Shown: positions 45,001 to 51,000, counted from the first letter of the stretch. The stretch: 64,000 nucleotides of DNA from Rhizobium sp. Q54 (GCA_945861615.1 CAMAVH010000002.1:2955-66954), one strand, 5' to 3'. Program-made: the numbers.

Positions 45001-48000
45001 CGTGGGTAGAGGTGTTCCAACTCGTGCAACGTCGATGAGAAGAAATCGGTATCGAGTCGCAGCAGCGCGATCTGATCGGGCGCCGCGCCGGGGATGGTAT
45101 CCTCGACCATGCCCTCAACGTAATGAACCTTGTGGGGGGGGATAACCGGTGCGCTTGATAAAGCGGCGGGTGTCGTCGAGCGTCGAAACGACCCAGCCGG
45201 AGTTGCCGTCGGGTCGAAGTTTTTGCGCCCATTCTTCGTGGGCCGATCGGCCGTCGGCGTAGACATCCCGTTCGCCCGGCACAGGCATGCCGGCAAAGGT
45301 GTCGAACAGGTGAAACTCCCGGTCGGATTGGCCGCGCTGCATCAAAGCATGCATCATGATGGCGACGCCGCCGCCTTTATAGACGCCGCATTCAACGAAT
45401 GCGCCGGGAATATTGTAGCGCGCGACATGATCCGTAAGGCGCACAAGCCCGGCAACACCCTCAGGGGAAACAATCGCGATATTTTCCGTGATGCAATAAA
45501 GCATTTTCTCTTCTGTCGTCAGATCGGAACGATCGACGCCGGGCACAGACATTTTGAAATTCTTGGCGACGGCTAAAGCATCCGCCCGCTTATCCGCATC
45601 GGATAAGGCACGGATCAGACGTATGTGAAGATATTGGTCGTCCGGTATTAGAATGACAGCCTTACGCCAGCAGACGAAGGCATGCGCGAGATCGCCGACA
45701 TTGAGGAATTGCTCGCCGACGTTCCACAGCACCTTCGGATGATGCGGCATCAGCAAGGCGACGGCTTCATCGAGCTTGTTGGCGACGATCAGCTTTTTGG
45801 TTTTTTCCTCAAGTTCTCTGATTTGCACCGCTAAGGTGTCTTGCTCGCTCATACTCGCACTCGCTAGCCTTGAATGATGGTGGATTCCACGGACCGGAAC
45901 CGCACAGCAGTGGATCCATGAGATGACTGCGGTCTGGGGCTTAAATATTCTTAACAGCGTCGTCCGGAAACTCTTTTTCTAGCGCGTCTGCCCGCGGACT
46001 CGTACGCCGGATGATGATGTCGCCCTGATCGGTGATTTCCGGCAGGGCGTATTGCGGCAAAGCCCCGACGAACCGGTCGAAGGCGCGCAACACGCTGTCC
46101 ATGCCCTGGCGAGCGAGTTGGCCCGGTCTGCGCGTGTCGCCCTGATCGGCGGCCAAAGTTTCGGCGAAGGCCGGCATAACGGTTGCGGTCAGAGTCAAGA
46201 AAACAACGGCAGACAGGAAACGGCGGACGGTCATGGTCAGGGCCTCCTGAAAGGAATGAACCGGCGAATTATACCTCGGCGCGCGGGCCTTTGCGGACCG
46301 AATTTGACTCCGCAGCGTCGGCGGCCCGGCCGCGGCCTAAAGATCTTTCAACGTGACCCCCGCCAGGGCCTGCTCGATAGCGCTCTCCGCCCACTGGGCG
46401 GCTGCCAACACGCCGGGTCGACCCTCCAGCGTGGCGCTAAGGCGCATGCGGCCAGTGCCGGCACCGCGCCACGCCGTCAGTACGGTGATATACGCCAGCT
46501 CATTCGGGCTTGATCATCATTCTGCCTCATAGCACCATGTTGCCATATCAAATTTTGAGAGACGATAGTGGCAGCAAAACACTCGCCCGCAAAGCATCCG
46601 TCTGATGAAGCCCCTCGGCCAGAGAGTCCTTATCGCAAGCCAGGACGCCCTTCTTTCAAGCCGACACAGCAACAGATTGGTTGGGTAAAAGGGGTGGCAA
46701 TGTTCGAGCCACCACTTGATTTTATTGCGCGGACAATTCCGGGGGGACCGATCTCGATAAAAACTCTCATGAAGAATTTTGGAGACACTATCAAATTTGC
46801 CAAGATCAACGCCATCAGCCAGGTGACCATGTCTCTCGTTCGAGCGGCACTTACGCCTGGGCCAGGCCAAGTCAGAGCACAAATTTTTTATCTTAAAAGT
46901 GTTGGTTGGCCCAATGACAATAGTGAGGCCCGCGTTGAGAAAAGCACGAGCAATAGTCAAAGCTCCCAGGCAAAGATCAATACAAAACGCCCCAGCGCGC
47001 GCCTAGCCGCTCGAGTTCGGCGTGTCAAATTCGCAGGAAGCGAAGACCGGCCGCGACTTTCATCGGCAGACGAAATCGAAAAATTAAGTAAATTACTCGC
47101 AAAGTCTTGACACACGCGACGATGAGCGAGCGGCCGTAAAAGCGCATCACAGCAATGCCGACCTCTAGCGCCGTCAGCTAACTTATCCCCGCAATCCACC
47201 GACCCCAGCACCACAACAACAAACAGTGTGTAAGTACCTACTGTTGTAGTTGGTGGGAAATAACGCGTTTTACGGGGATAACTTTTGATCAGAAATTTCC
47301 GCAATCAGGCGTTAACTGGCCAAACCCTAAATTCATTCTCACATCAACTTCCACTTGCACATTTTGTCTCGTCAGTTTCGCCCCCAAGCCGTAGGCATAC
47401 GCACTTGCATAATTAAGCCGTTCGCCTTTCGGACCCGTTGACCAGCGCAATGTTTTACGCGTGTGTGTGCTCATTCTCATTGTGATTCGTGGAGGATGGC
47501 GCAGTGGACGATGGAGCGAAATTTTTGGCATGGCGGATGCGCTTTCAAGCCGAGGCGCGTGATTTGCTCGCCTACATCAATCAAGCCTTGCTGCAGAGCT
47601 TGGCCGTCAGCGATGCAGGCTGCAAATGAACGGGCTTTCAACCGAACAGACCAAAGCGCTTGAAGCCAAATTGCAAGCCAAGCATATCCGCGAGCGGGAA
47701 ATGCGTGGCATGAGCTTTTCTTATCTCGAAGGCTGGCATGTGATTGCTGAAGCCAACCGCATTTTCGGCTTTGACGGCTGGGACCGCGAAACGCTAGAGA
47801 GCGCCTGTGTTTGGCATGCGGCCAGCCGTGACCCTGCGTGCAGCTATACAGCCCGGGTGCGCATCCGCGTGCGCGCCGGAGACAAGCTGGTGATCCGCGA
47901 TGGCTCTGGCTTCGGCTCAGGGACCGGCATCACTCTCGGCGAGGCCCATGAAAAGGCACTCAAAGAAGCCGAGACCGACGCCACAAAACGTGCCTTCATG

Positions 48001-51000
48001 ACCTTCGGCAATCCTTTCGGCTTAGCGCTCTACGACAAGGATATGACCCAAGTCACAGGGCGCAAGGCTCAGAAGCACAAATGGCCCTTGGTCTCTGGCG
48101 CCGGCCTGCAGATCAAGGACTATGGCAATCCGCATCTTTTCTATGGAGGCGCCAAGAAACTCCTGCAACAAGCTCAGACCGTCGATGAAGTGCGCCGCCT
48201 ATGGGAGGCCAATGAGCTAACCTTCCGCCGCTTGCGGGAAGCTTTTCCAGACATGCGCGATGAAAACGGCATCCACTTCACCATTCTGTTTTGCCGCGCC
48301 TGCCGCACCCGGCTGCAAGAAATCGCTGCTGTCCCCACCCAGAGCCAGGACAGCAAACCAAACGTGCCGCCGCCAAGCCAGCCCCGCAACACTGGCAACG
48401 CCGAGGCAATCGAAACAAGCGAGGATGCAGCTGATGTCGATACGGTTGCTGTCTCTGGTATTTCGAACGAGGCCGACGCGCACTCAAGTCTCGGCTATGA
48501 GCAATTATATGTCGCTCCGCAAAAGCCACCGCCCTCACAAGGGGCGCAAGCAGAGCCCACCAGCGCCAAAACTGCTCCCAGACCCATCAGCCAGCCGACT
48601 GGCCTCGTCGACCCCTTAACGGCAACTTTGGCGGCGCTGAAGGCTCCAATGATCCCGAGCAGCCAGGGCAGCCAGGGCAGCCAGGGCAGCCAGAGCAGCC
48701 AGGGCAGCCAGGGCAGCCAAAGCGTCGATCTGCCTTTCGGCAAGATCCAGCGCCACCGCGATCGCCAGCACCTGAAACGTGTGGCGGCGCAGCCCTGCCT
48801 CGTCTGCGGGCGCAACCCGGCGCACGCCCATCACCTCACCTTCGCCCAGCCACGGGCCCGTAGCCTGAAGGTCAGCGATGAATGGACTGTCCCGCTGTGC
48901 GCCTTGCATCACCGTGAATTGCATGATCACGGCAACGAACTCGCTTGGTGGCAGACCAAGGCGATCGAGCCGATAGGCATCGCTCAAGCGCTGTGGGCCG
49001 CTCGCCGCGATGTTGGCGGTGCGGCAAGTCTGGAGGGCCAGCACGATGCACGGTGATCCTCTCCTCAACGGCGCCCATAATATCGAGATCAAGCAATGAG
49101 CAAGATCAAGCCATTGCCCGAGGAGGTCCGCACCCTCGCCAAATCGCTGATCGAGCAGATCTATGAGCGCGTCATGCTGTTGGAAGCGATGTCGGCCGAG
49201 TCCTGCCCGGAACAGGACATGGGCAAACGGCTCGACGATCTCTTCAGCGCCGCCACCATGCTTTCCCAAGCCCCGGCCGGCTCGATTGGCGATGTCGCGC
49301 TCAAGCTGGATGTCTTATGCCGGCGCATGCGCGAGTCGACATCGCCGGAACATTCAGGCGAGGTGCTGACCTACATGCTGGCGGAATCAATCCGCAGCGA
49401 TTGTTGCGTGTTGTCCCAATGGCTGCGTTAAAGCTTTGGTGGGACAATTCAGCGCCGCTGATAGTGGCAGGCGTTGCTTGTCAAGCCGCCAAAACGGCCG
49501 CGGTGCGCATGCGCATCTGCTCAACCGCGCTTGCGCGAAGGCTTGGTCGGCTCGCTCTGCCATTCGGTTTCAACACGTTTGGCGACAATGATATTGGGGT
49601 AGCGCCGGCCGTCTTTGGTGACCAGCTCTTCAGCTTTCTTCAGCTTGGCAAGCTTGCTTTGATAAGTCGCTTCATGCATGCCTCTGGGCCGACCGGCTTT
49701 AAGATGGCCCAAGTCGAGCACAGTTTGTGTTGCACGAACCCGGGCATCGACGCGCTGACTGGCGTTGACGAGATCATGGCAAGTCCGACAAGCCCAAGAG
49801 TCATGCCAGTAAAAGAGTTTGAGAACGCGGTGGTTGCCTTTTGGACAGGTAAACCATTTGCGAGCCCTGCCGACACGCGAGTAGGTCTCTTCGATCTCGA
49901 AGTCGATGATCTCCGGATCATCATCCATAAGTGGACCGTAAATTTTAATGACGGCACGCAGGGTTTCAGGGTCTGGCACCTTGAAAACGCCAACACCAAT
50001 GGTGCGAGCGCCGCCGTTGACGATATCGAATTCGACCCATTCACAACTGAATTCCGGCTGATCCAACCGTCGCCCCACATCTTTAAAATCGATCGAGGGG
50101 CAACTTTCGCTGTGGCGGCGCGGCGGCTGCGGAATGAGACGGCGACGAGGCATGAAAATCCACTCGAGGTTAGATCGTAACCATTATTACGGTGGATATT
50201 CTAGATTATCGAGTAAATTACCTTTTCTTGGGCTTACCGATACAAAGGGGTCTTTTAATTTCAAGGAGTTATATAGCTATTTTATTCTGGGGAATTTTTT
50301 CTAATATATGAATAATTATTCTAGATTTACGTAAATTAGCCAACACGAGAAGGTTGTCGCCTGCAGACAACCTAGGTTTCCGTGCTGTCAGATTCGGAGG
50401 GGGTTTTCGCTGGCATGTTCGGGTCTGGATTCTTGCGCCGGATAATAATGTCGCCCTGCTCGGTGATCTCCGGCAGCCCGTAGCGCGGCAATTCAGCGGC
50501 GAATTTCTCCAAGCTGCGCAGCAGCTCATCGACCCGCTCGCGGGCGATCTCACCCGGCCGGCGAGGCGTATCGGCGCCGGGCGCCTCGGCGAAAGCCGGC
50601 GCGGCCATCGCCGTCAGAACGAGCAGGGCAGCGGCAAGCAGGAAACGGCGGACGGTCATGGCCAGGGCCTCCTGAAAGGTTTTCGGGCGGATTATAACGC
50701 GGCGCGCGGGCCTTTGCGGGCGGAATTGGCATCGACCGCGGCGCCGTCGACCGCCGTCTCGACGGCTTGGCCACGGCCTTCGGCGAGGTCTTTGAGCGTC
50801 ACCCCGGCCAAGGCCGCCTCGATGGCGTCCTCCACGGATTTGGCGGCCGCGAGCACACCGGGCTGGCCCGCCAGCGTGGCGCTGAGCCGCATGCGGCCGG
50901 GCCCCGCGCCGCGCGCCGCCGTCAGCACCGAGATCGCCTGGGTCGCTTCCGGCGGCCGGGCGGGCACATAGCCCGGGCGCTTGCCCTCCAGACAGCGGAT

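Follow-up and report, generated by a model that had tools for sequence, protein, structure and literature searches.

The window analysed here, a stretch of 64,000 nt from Rhizobium sp. Q54, carries on its minus strand an intact gene (50692..52140) whose 482-aa product is, by its domain matches, a member of the YihY/BrkB family, scoring above the curated cut-offs of both PF03631 (182.1 bits; cut-off 33.7) and TIGR00765 (154.8; cut-off 73.15). The product comprises a membrane domain and a C-terminal Rrf2-like winged helix (PF02082, 4.9e-10), and single-copy orthologues of this yihY gene are present in the relatives L001-L005, L018, L020 and L114. It is followed on the same strand by smallR (50372..50659), an ORF whose 95-aa product bears a Sec-type signal peptide predicted by eye (MTVRRFL...AFA|E). 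Right after the smallR stop codon lies a minus-strand hairpin (GTTGTCTGCAGGCGACAAC plus ...TTGGCTAA; 50336..50371), which failed the T-run rule of a terminator scan. This hairpin is the last sequence common to the window and the island-less L018/L019, and positions 50336-50476 of the window are identical to L018.

Beyond the hairpin lies an island (46496-50335) of four genes. Nearest to it is the gene for a 210-aa zinc-ribbon protein of an uncharacterised family (49521..50153, minus strand), followed on the plus strand by that for a 111-aa protein (49096..49431). The latter is the most conserved gene of the island (99% amino acid identity to L113, dN/dS 0.03); its product has no family match above the curated thresholds of Pfam, PHROGs and NCBIfam, and gave the only match to the PADLOC defence models, a weak one to a Type I specificity model (E 0.0033). 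The third gene (47626..49056, plus strand) encodes in one polypeptide a Rad52/Rad22-type annealing domain (PF04098, 119.1 bits; cut-off 20.3) and an HNH-like DUF968 (PF06147, 42.3; cut-off 27.8). On these matches its product belongs to the Rad52/Rad22-DUF968 fusions, with predicted annealing and nuclease activities. Its PHROG matches are recombinase and HNH, it is up to 56% identical to its Rad52 relatives in phages, and it has 251 metagenome relatives; among the matches listed, most align over both domains. The linker contains a variable 9-nt tandem repeat encoding a Ser/Gln/Gly run (48645-48728), and the length of the protein differs among contigs (476, 473, 463, 462 and 461 aa). A 46-aa ORF (47489-47629) overlaps the start of the fusion gene. 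The fourth gene (46568..47110, plus strand), which has a promoter-like site near its start in a promoter scan (46540-46569), encodes a 180-aa protein that resembles, by eye only, the N-terminus of phage helix-turn-helix/small-terminase proteins (GRPSF.PT..Q). Its sole PHROG match is weak (phrog_12540, E 0.0046), its homologues are other island copies only, and its dN/dS against L113 is 0.38.

The original prediction was that the island carries phage-type genes. A search of its proteins against phage families bears this out for the Rad52-DUF968 fusion, but not for the other three genes, which gave no phage hits. The same prediction held that the island may be a decayed remnant. However, the dN/dS values of its genes against L113 (0.03-0.38) indicate purifying selection, and hence that the island is not decaying.

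Phage Rad52/Sak-type modules consist of a Rad52-like annealing protein with a Sipho_Gp157 partner. Like them, the island has a clear member of the Rad52/Rad22 family, in the N-terminal domain of its fusion protein. The Rad52-DUF968 fusion is common in metagenomes; a Gp157 gene is present in 21 of 34 related loci of at least 6 kb, and lies directly upstream of the recombinase gene in those of the 21 that were examined. Unlike these modules, the island contains neither a Gp157 gene nor a remnant of one, and its own partner genes, those for the 180-, 111- and 210-aa proteins, occur beside none of 90 other Rad52-DUF968 genes examined.

The island is indeed richer in AT than its surroundings, as had been noticed from the start: its GC content is 55.5%, against 61.4% for the whole window, and is the lowest among 301 segments of equal size. 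GC is heterogeneous inside it, with 50.9% in 46496-47625, 61% in the Rad52 gene and 30.8% in the spacer upstream of the 210-aa gene (50154-50335). The stretch 50180..50340 had been called almost promoter-like in its AT-richness, and a promoter scan found two promoter-like sites on the minus strand of the spacer. The spacer also holds two copies of a motif of ~22 nt (TATTCTAGATT..CG..TAAATTA), both of which are recognisable in L113, and the palindrome ATTTACGTAAAT lies within the right-hand one. The island is real and looks foreign.

At the other end of the island, alignment and translation reveal an orphan yihY 3' fragment on the minus strand (46270..46489), equivalent to ~codons 402-482. A start codon is missing, and a 4-nt deletion leads to a stop at 46337. 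The earlier description of one copy as a displaced, truncated remnant holds. The fragment still has the conserved end of the gene and, ahead of smallL, TATAAT/AGGAGG signals. SmallL (45941..46234, minus strand) is an intact gene for a 97-aa paralogue of smallR (49% amino acid identity). Its dN/dS against L020 is 0.39, and the diverged strain L008 carries it with 100% identity; this second small-protein gene is complete and probably expressed. Next after smallL is a TylF-type O-methyltransferase gene (44853..45852, minus strand), which is split in the window by a frameshift at a C8 run that is C7 in L008. A TylF gene also follows the small gene in the island-less L020 and P0003. Between the orphan fragment and the island lies a junction of ~40 nt (46490..46532) that matches neither the yihY unit nor the L113 island: homology to the right repeat and to L020 stops at 46489, and homology to L113 begins at ~46527-46533.

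The left and right copies form direct repeats. Local alignment of 45996-46489 with 50427-50934 gave 361 identical columns out of 517 (~70%), with a score of 191; shuffled sequences scored 13.6 +/- 1.9, and other segments of the window no more than 17. The two also align by MAFFT, and a repeat scan of the window pairs left with right blocks in gapless families at 70-79% identity (45996-46132 with 50427-50563, 46145-46254 with 50570-50679, 46263-46323 with 50686-50746, and 46341-46489 with 50786-50934). The yihY part of the right repeat is the last ~250 nt of the gene (50692-50940), and the left copy shares with L020 a 30-nt gap relative to the right one. With an alignment so far above background, the flanks are homologous but diverged copies, as had been proposed. 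Both of the identical stretches quoted in support of that proposal are present in the two copies, and such identical runs are sequences conserved across all lineages. An assembly artefact was rejected because the same arrangement recurs in at least five independent assemblies, one of them from a strain that is 3-5% diverged.

Comparison with relatives provided the empty sites. Each of ten related island-less contigs (L001, L002, L003, L005, L018/L019, L020, P0003 and L114/L115) has one yihY/small-gene unit; since the relatives carry one copy, an ancestral duplication common to them, the scenario that had been named as contrary to insertion, is ruled out. In L020 and P0003 the gene order is yihY-small-TylF-...-epimerase-865aa-391aa, the order found left of smallL in the window. 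L113, the GCA_041443045.1 contig and the P0004 contig each carry the same four-gene island just downstream of an intact yihY/small pair. Its far side is readable in the first two, the P0004 contig ending inside the island, and neither L113 nor the GCA_041443045.1 contig has a second small gene there. The far-side flank is different in each of the three lineages in which it can be read, and four lineages share one insertion point despite different flanking allele types. The window aligns with L113 at 83% from 46533 to beyond 50372, which defines the ends of the island. The island homology of the two ends at most ~35 nt from the joint in the window, which hints at a defined island end that a purely random joint would not predict.

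On the right, the border of the island is inside the small gene and not in yihY. The body of smallR is of a type that we call R, and its last ~17 codons (~50372-50425) form a tail that is linked to the island; compared with the L018 protein, the body is 92% and the tail 100% identical. All three other island carriers have this tail type, L113 in a partly diverged version, and it is also found in L018, a deletion form, and in P0006. Tail identity is 0.70-1.00 among the window, L018, P0004, P0006 and the GCA_041443045.1 contig, 0.45 for the island carrier L113, and at most 0.39 for all island-less lineages except L018. The tail co-occurs with the island whatever the allele type of the rest of the small gene, and in P0004 and the GCA_041443045.1 contig it is joined to a body of the other type (L). 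The 91.5% identity between L113 and L002 extends to 53 nt ahead of the stop codon of the small gene. The final ~17 codons of this gene move together with the island. At 50940, the edge of the repeat within yihY, there is no ancestry break relative to L018 or L020, and the right copy shares continuous ancestry with the rest of yihY.

The left copy, as judged from sequence comparison, is a different allele type, that of L020, and not an in-situ duplicate. The body of smallL is of the L type and its tail (...ALEKEF.DD.VKNI) of the L020/P0003 type; the identity of this tail is 0.90-0.92 with L020/L022 and 0.40 with the right copy. For the right-copy body, the identity is 0.91 with L018 and 0.82 with L002. 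The left-copy yihY part is nearly equidistant from L020 (0.81), L114 (0.79) and the right copy (0.76), and so does not stand out as either 'native' or 'imported'. Taken as a whole, the left unit is only ~80% identical to L020, whereas the adjoining block reaches 93-98%. The surrounding DNA is mosaic. The window is 93-98% identical to L018 right of 50336 and left of ~37500, but only 73-94% over ~37500-45500, where it is 93-98% identical to L020 over most of the block (86-89% in 39500-40499). The right border of this L020-like block differs between the window and L008.

We lean, with modest confidence, towards the reading that the repeats are two allele types of a normally single-copy unit, juxtaposed by homology-assisted illegitimate recombination at a hypervariable locus. 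The arrangement is most likely an ordinary recombination scar, not the footprint of a site-specific integrating element. The unit comprises the last ~80 codons of yihY and the small secreted-protein gene, and the locus consists of a conserved yihY, then its fast-evolving tail, then the small gene. Past the small-gene codons for GDIIIRRK the content varies by lineage, opening in several lineages with a 3.9-kb phage-derived cassette. This cassette supplies the last ~17 codons of the small gene and the post-stop hairpin, followed in order by the zinc-ribbon gene, the 111-aa gene, the Rad52-HNH fusion gene and the 180-aa gene. In the lineage of the window, the left end of the cassette would have been fused to mid-gene sequence of a second yihY, L020-like in allele type. 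The joining would have left an orphan on the left, namely a promoterless, start-less yihY 3' fragment, a complete smallL and the TylF sugar-modification cluster. The simplest route would be homology-facilitated illegitimate recombination (HFIR), in which homology anchors one side of the incoming DNA while the other side is attached by an illegitimate joint. Of this account, the anatomy, the allele types, the single-copy state of relatives, the occurrence of the island in other settings and the mosaic ancestry are shown; the mechanism, and which of the two copies was there first, are inferred. Like the products of HFIR, the locus has one side in good homology, an abrupt joint without shared sequence on the other (46490-46532), and mosaic neighbouring DNA; the joint and the mosaic ancestry are seen here by comparative anatomy of relatives rather than of parental molecules.

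Comparable scars are on record. C-terminal displacement and orphan modules are described for rhs, CDI and T6SS effector-immunity loci (Kirchberger et al. 2017, PMC5361080; Jackson et al. 2009 therein), and the HFIR explanation accompanies such scars in T6SS effector-immunity arrays and rhs loci in the same paper, which draws on de Vries & Wackernagel 2002, Prudhomme et al. 2002 and Meier & Wackernagel 2003. The present locus resembles rhs/T6SS orphan loci in that the 5' part of a gene is conserved, its 3' part varies and a small gene lies downstream, and in keeping a start-less 3' fragment with an intact small partner downstream of newly placed DNA: the fragment at 46270-46489 has its premature stop and is followed by intact smallL. 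As at those loci, the orphan allele type sits in the main position in other strains, after full-length yihY in the L020 and P0003 contigs, and the proposed mechanism is also the same. However, the upstream gene here encodes a YihY/BrkB membrane protein with a winged-helix tail, unlike those of rhs, CDI and T6SS loci, there is a single orphan, unlike in rhs/T6SS arrays, and the active and orphan units are separated by a phage-derived cassette of 3.9 kb. No toxin or immunity family was found in yihY or the small proteins with Pfam and NCBIfam; thus, the locus works like orphan-module loci but is not a member of them.

The observed order, with a left copy that starts abruptly beside the left end of the island, is also exactly that predicted by Campbell-type integration of a circle carrying a yihY 3' fragment, an L-type body, the island tail and the island. 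A single homologous crossover with the resident small gene, within its conserved ...LPEI..GDIIIRRK stretch, would restore two full small genes, and the duplicated part would be precisely the homologous segment borne by the circle. The body/tail boundary is a demonstrated recombination point, given the hybrids in P0004 and the GCA_041443045.1 contig and the end of L113/L002 homology there, island carriers with L-type bodies are possible donors, and the island encodes a Rad52-type annealing protein. However, the resident gene would have needed an R-type body with an ALEKEF-type tail, a combination seen in 0 of 17 sequences compared. In addition, the left-copy body resembles the bodies of island carriers (0.71 and 0.57) no more closely than it does that of L020 (0.68), and the two other island-bearing genomes with a readable far side have no duplication. 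We regard this integration as rather unlikely.

Islands and prophages with tyrosine integrases enter the 3' ends of tRNA/tmRNA or protein genes and carry a replacement 3' end. The original prediction amounts to a model of this kind, in which an element inserted site-specifically in the yihY 3' end would have brought a replacement 3' end and small gene, the repeats would be attL and attR, and the integrase would since have been lost. The foreign-looking island, the truncated remnant and the single unit of the relatives survive from it, as do direct repeats that bracket a low-GC segment with a phage-type recombination gene. The island, with its constant position, low GC and phage-type gene, does replace a gene 3' end as such elements do, but it is that of the small gene, for which the cassette supplies the final codons and hairpin. 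The targeting of the yihY 3' end is contradicted by the same island lying downstream of an intact yihY/small pair in three other lineages, and its replacement by the border inside the small gene and the unbroken ancestry at 50940. The absence of an integrase, already remarked upon, was confirmed: no integrase or recombinase of that kind was found on any island ORF with Pfam, PHROGs or NCBIfam, nor an integrase in Pfam-annotated gene tables for ~10 kb on each side. Unlike 3'-end-replacing islands, this one lacks an att core, no displaced tail fragment adjoins its far end, and the far-side flank differs in all three readable lineages. Identity between the repeats stays at 70-79% over their whole length, without an identical core at their ends, the regions 46470-46560 and 50300-50490 share no direct or inverted match of at least 8 nt, terminal repeats of the island were not found, and L113 and the GCA_041443045.1 contig have the island without a duplicated target. 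Together with the purifying selection on the island genes, this largely refutes the site-specific model, which we consider very improbable. If the yihY-3'/small unit had long ago been duplicated in tandem in situ, the copies then diverging and the island later inserting between them, this would explain their direct orientation and two intact small genes. The scenario is scarcely credible, as each copy groups with alleles of other genomes (L020/L022 for the left one, L018/L002/L113 for the right one) rather than with its partner, and two copies are found in none of the ten island-less contigs, L113 and the GCA_041443045.1 contig.

It is conceivable, if distinctly improbable, that the 3.9-kb cassette is an integrase-less mobile unit that recombines into the conserved end of the small gene through its own Rad52-annealase/HNH fusion, and that it may spread among related Alphaproteobacteria in a homing-like or annealing-driven manner. 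The synonymous divergence between the window and L113 is 0.25-0.30 for the Rad52 and 111-aa genes and 0.45 for yihY, and there are three equidistant Rad52 alleles, two of them within one species. This lower divergence, the constant insertion point and the co-inheritance of tail and island are consistent with a mobile unit, as are the equidistant Rad52 alleles, the purifying selection and the lack of an integrase. If so, the duplicated unit in the window would be a by-product of one imperfect insertion.

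Read in the sense of the yihY/BrkB-family gene, that is, along the minus strand, the region from 45.9 to 52.1 kb opens with the intact yihY gene (50692-52140, minus strand; PF03631, 182 bits), whose product ends in a Rrf2-like winged helix, and with smallR, a 95-aa gene with a signal peptide (50372-50659, minus). A hairpin and then a spacer of 30.8% GC lead to a 210-aa gene (49521-50153, minus), after which come a 111-aa gene (49096-49431, plus), a Rad52/Rad22-DUF968 fusion gene (47626-49056, plus) and a 180-aa gene (46568-47110, plus). Beyond this island lie a start-less 3' fragment of yihY (46270-46489, minus), a second small gene, smallL (45941-46234, minus), and a TylF-type methyltransferase gene (44853-45852). 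The organism encodes two quite different versions of a small secreted protein (49% identical). Exact-sequence look-ups returned no record for yihY and only an already known contig for smallR. In most lineages the nucleotide sequence of the yihY end (...RKGPRAAL stop), found at both 46263-46295 and 50686-50718, has been conserved. A perfect TATAAT lies within this stretch, which probably also serves the small gene as its promoter; if it does, the orphan smallL is likely to be still transcribed.

The original prediction of diverged direct repeats around a low-GC island held as an observation, and its interpretation is partly supported. The repeats consist of four collinear gapless segments that are 70-79% identical, and the local alignment of 45996-46489 with 50427-50934 scores 191, against 13.6 +/- 1.9 for shuffled sequences and at most 17 for other segments of the window. 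With 55.5% GC against 61.4% for the window, the island is the lowest-GC 3.84 kb in the window; its composition is uneven, the Rad52 gene having the genome-average GC.

Ten related contigs without the island were gathered by a scan of representative genomes and by exact-protein look-ups. One yihY and, after it, one small gene were found at the related loci L001, L002, L003, L005, L018/L019, L020 and L114/L115 and on the contig encoding the related protein P0003, so the unit of yihY 3' end and small gene is normally single-copy. The empty-site sequence includes ...GGCGACATCATCATCCGGCG.... In L020 and the P0003 contig the small gene is followed by TylF, a 78/79-aa gene, genes for 273 and 143 aa, an epimerase gene and genes for about 865 and 391 aa, which is the order left of smallL in the window; the left copy therefore occupies its normal position relative to the TylF cluster.

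The two copies belong to different allele types. By fraction of identical DNA, the left tail (the last ~17 codons of the small gene) matches L020 and L022, two related loci, at 0.90 and 0.92, and the right copy at 0.40; the left spacer matches L020 at 0.91, and the left body, the main part of the small gene, matches L020 at 0.77 and the right copy at 0.66. The right body matches L018 at 0.91, L002 at 0.82 and L113, a related island-bearing locus, at 0.79. Since the left copy resembles the L020/L022 alleles and the right copy those of L018, L002 and L113, and since a 30-nt gap in the yihY tail is common to the left copy and L020, duplication in situ is excluded. The idea that the left copy is a chimera, with its crossover where the small gene starts, was dropped, as the yihY part of this copy also carries the L020-type indel. 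Compared with L018 or L020, ancestry does not change abruptly at the repeat border (50940); identity falls gradually, as between other pairs, because the region evolves faster. The 141-nt run identical between the window and L018 does not prove recent transfer, being only mildly unusual given a background divergence of 2-4%. Within 50477-50870, comprising the yihY tail, spacer and small-gene body, 45 of 394 nt differ from L018, with flanks 97-100% identical; from this comparison, the unit appears to be exchanged or fast-evolving even among close relatives.

Close homologues of the 210-aa and 180-aa proteins occur in only a few contigs. In L113 the order is aldolase/IF-2B/PNP genes, a short fragment, the island, the small gene and yihY. 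In the GCA_041443045.1 contig it is yihY, the small gene, the island and a different methyltransferase/HisF-HisH-like cluster, and a 3.4-kb contig encoding the related protein P0004 runs out after yihY, the small gene, the 210-aa gene and the 111-aa gene. On the far side of the island, both L113 and the GCA_041443045.1 contig lack a second small gene. As 46533-51615 aligns with L113 in a single piece at 83% identity, the left end of the island lies at about 46527-46533, some 40 nt from the start of the yihY fragment. The L113 segment adjoining this end (4560-4730; translation ...AERGIDVSCETVHC / AEKFGKLISANIRRSPF), read by eye, looks like a frameshifted N-terminal part of an IS6-type transposase.

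The right border falls inside the small gene. In the DNA comparison, L113 is 91.5% identical to the island-less L002 up to 53 nt before the stop codon. The C-terminal ~17 residues of the small proteins sort into types. The type ...P.MP.K..SES.STET is shared by the window's right copy, L018, P0004, P0006 (another related protein) and the GCA_041443045.1 protein, with a related form in L113; L018 excepted, the lineages without the island have different tails. Among island carriers the body is of the R type in the window and L113 and of the L type in P0004 and the GCA_041443045.1 contig, so that the tail follows the island and not the body. In L018 and L019 the island-type tail, the hairpin and TTGGCTAA are still present, and the sequence then switches to the interior of a TylF gene; on the simplest reading, they derive by deletion from an ancestor that bore the island. 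A motif of about 22 nt (TATTCTAGATT..CG..TAAATTA) occurs twice in the AT-rich spacer (50196-50221 and 50316-50340), and both copies are recognisable in L113. The right-hand copy holds the perfect palindrome ATTTACGTAAAT exactly where L018 homology stops. These copies may be operator or recombination sites.

One event of illegitimate recombination, assisted by homology, would fit this anatomy. In it, the left end of the island would have been joined to the interior of an L-type yihY gene, leaving the last ~80 codons of that gene and its small partner stranded as an orphan. Any of three routes would give the product observed: an incoming fragment [yihY part - R unit - island] anchored in yihY, an incoming fragment [cluster - TylF - L unit] anchored in the cluster, or a circular fragment integrated through a single crossover at the small gene's conserved end. 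That the island is an integrase-less cassette spreading by its own Rad52-HNH protein seems to us improbable.

The Rad52 domain has phage relatives with up to 56% identity, and the Rad52-DUF968 protein has 251 metagenome relatives, most of those listed matching over both domains. Among the 34 related loci that span 6 kb or more, 21 also have a Sipho_Gp157 gene, which in the loci examined lies immediately upstream of the recombinase; here a search, which included a decayed gene in the conserved 47111-47625 spacer, did not find one. None of the other Rad52-DUF968 genes examined had the 180-, 111- or 210-aa partner gene as a neighbour. The 210-aa protein is a member of an uncharacterised zinc-ribbon family (335 remote homologues), and its confidently predicted fold has no solved relative; a scan of viral contigs gave no match to it. 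The PADLOC defence models gave no meaningful match to the island proteins. The proposal that the island is a decayed remnant is contradicted by dN/dS values against L113 of 0.03-0.38 (111-aa gene, 0.03; Rad52-DUF968 gene, 0.19; 210-aa gene, 0.20; 180-aa gene, 0.38); by these ratios the island is functional, without decay.

The Rad52 alleles of the window, L113 and L008, a diverged strain, are about equally distant (dS 0.25-0.30), and elsewhere nearby the window and L008 differ by 0-3%. Around the island these two are 97-100% identical, and only 82-95% over 47111-49431 (spacer, Rad52 and 111-aa genes), which suggests that recombinase-gene alleles have been exchanged between lineages. A 9-nt tandem repeat (CCAGGGCAG and variants) at 48645-48728 encodes a Ser/Gln/Gly run in the Rad52-DUF968 linker, and the length of the protein varies between strains and lineages (476, 473, 463, 462 and 461 aa). 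The spacer between the 180-aa and Rad52 genes (47111-47488) is 88% identical to L113, as conserved as coding regions, with no shared ORF; neither an Rfam match nor a Gp157 remnant was found in it.

The attachment-site model originally put forward, with an element targeting the 3' end of yihY, is largely refuted. No integrase had been noticed in the island, and indeed no integrase or transposase domain was found there or within about 10 kb. A tRNA or tmRNA target was rejected, the window having none; Rfam searches of 45800-51000 gave chance-level matches only, and the island ends share no repeat of at least 8 nt that could serve as an att-like core or terminal repeat. An assembly artefact was rejected because the arrangement recurs across assemblies and samples, including L008: 13.6 kb are 99.9% identical to a contig from another assembly, and smallL is present on ten contigs from different samples, adjoined by island genes in every sufficiently long one, among them L008, a strain diverged by 3-5% in which TylF is intact and the Rad52 gene encodes 462 aa.

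On the evidence of DNA identity, the neighbourhood of the locus is a mosaic produced by recombination. Right of 50336 and left of about 37500, the window and L018 are 93-98% identical; in the block of ~37500-45500 they are only 73-94% identical, and across most of that block the window is 93-98% identical to L020 (86-89% in 39500-40499). The L020-like block ends at the TylF start (~45850) in L008 and at ~45520 in the window; across the left copy and the left part of the island, identity between the window and L008 is 100%. The slot at 43572-44750, a second small variable spot within this cluster, holds an Acyl_transf_3 gene in the window; L008 and L020 have a 78-aa ORF there, and L018 has a GDSL-type gene. 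A frameshift at a C8 run (about 45165) splits the TylF-type gene itself (44853-45852); at this point L008 has C7 and L020 has CCTCCCC, both with an intact 332-aa gene. Several other assemblies of the window strain show the split as well, and either a genuine (phase-variable) homopolymer frameshift or an assembly error common to them could account for it.

The same mechanism has been proposed for C-terminal displacement at rhs and T6SS effector-immunity loci (PMC5361080). The pattern of an orphan 3' fragment with its partner gene, known from toxin loci, arises here at a locus of another, non-toxin kind; the event is of an ordinary sort at an unusual locus, and these findings do not overturn current understanding. 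When diverged direct repeats bracket a low-GC segment, they are not necessarily attachment sites; those described here are two alleles of a gene pair that evolves fast, brought together by recombination, at a site where related bacteria swap surface-modification genes and where a compact and conserved cassette, consisting of the Rad52-HNH gene and three uncharacterised partners, occupies a fixed position without an integrase.
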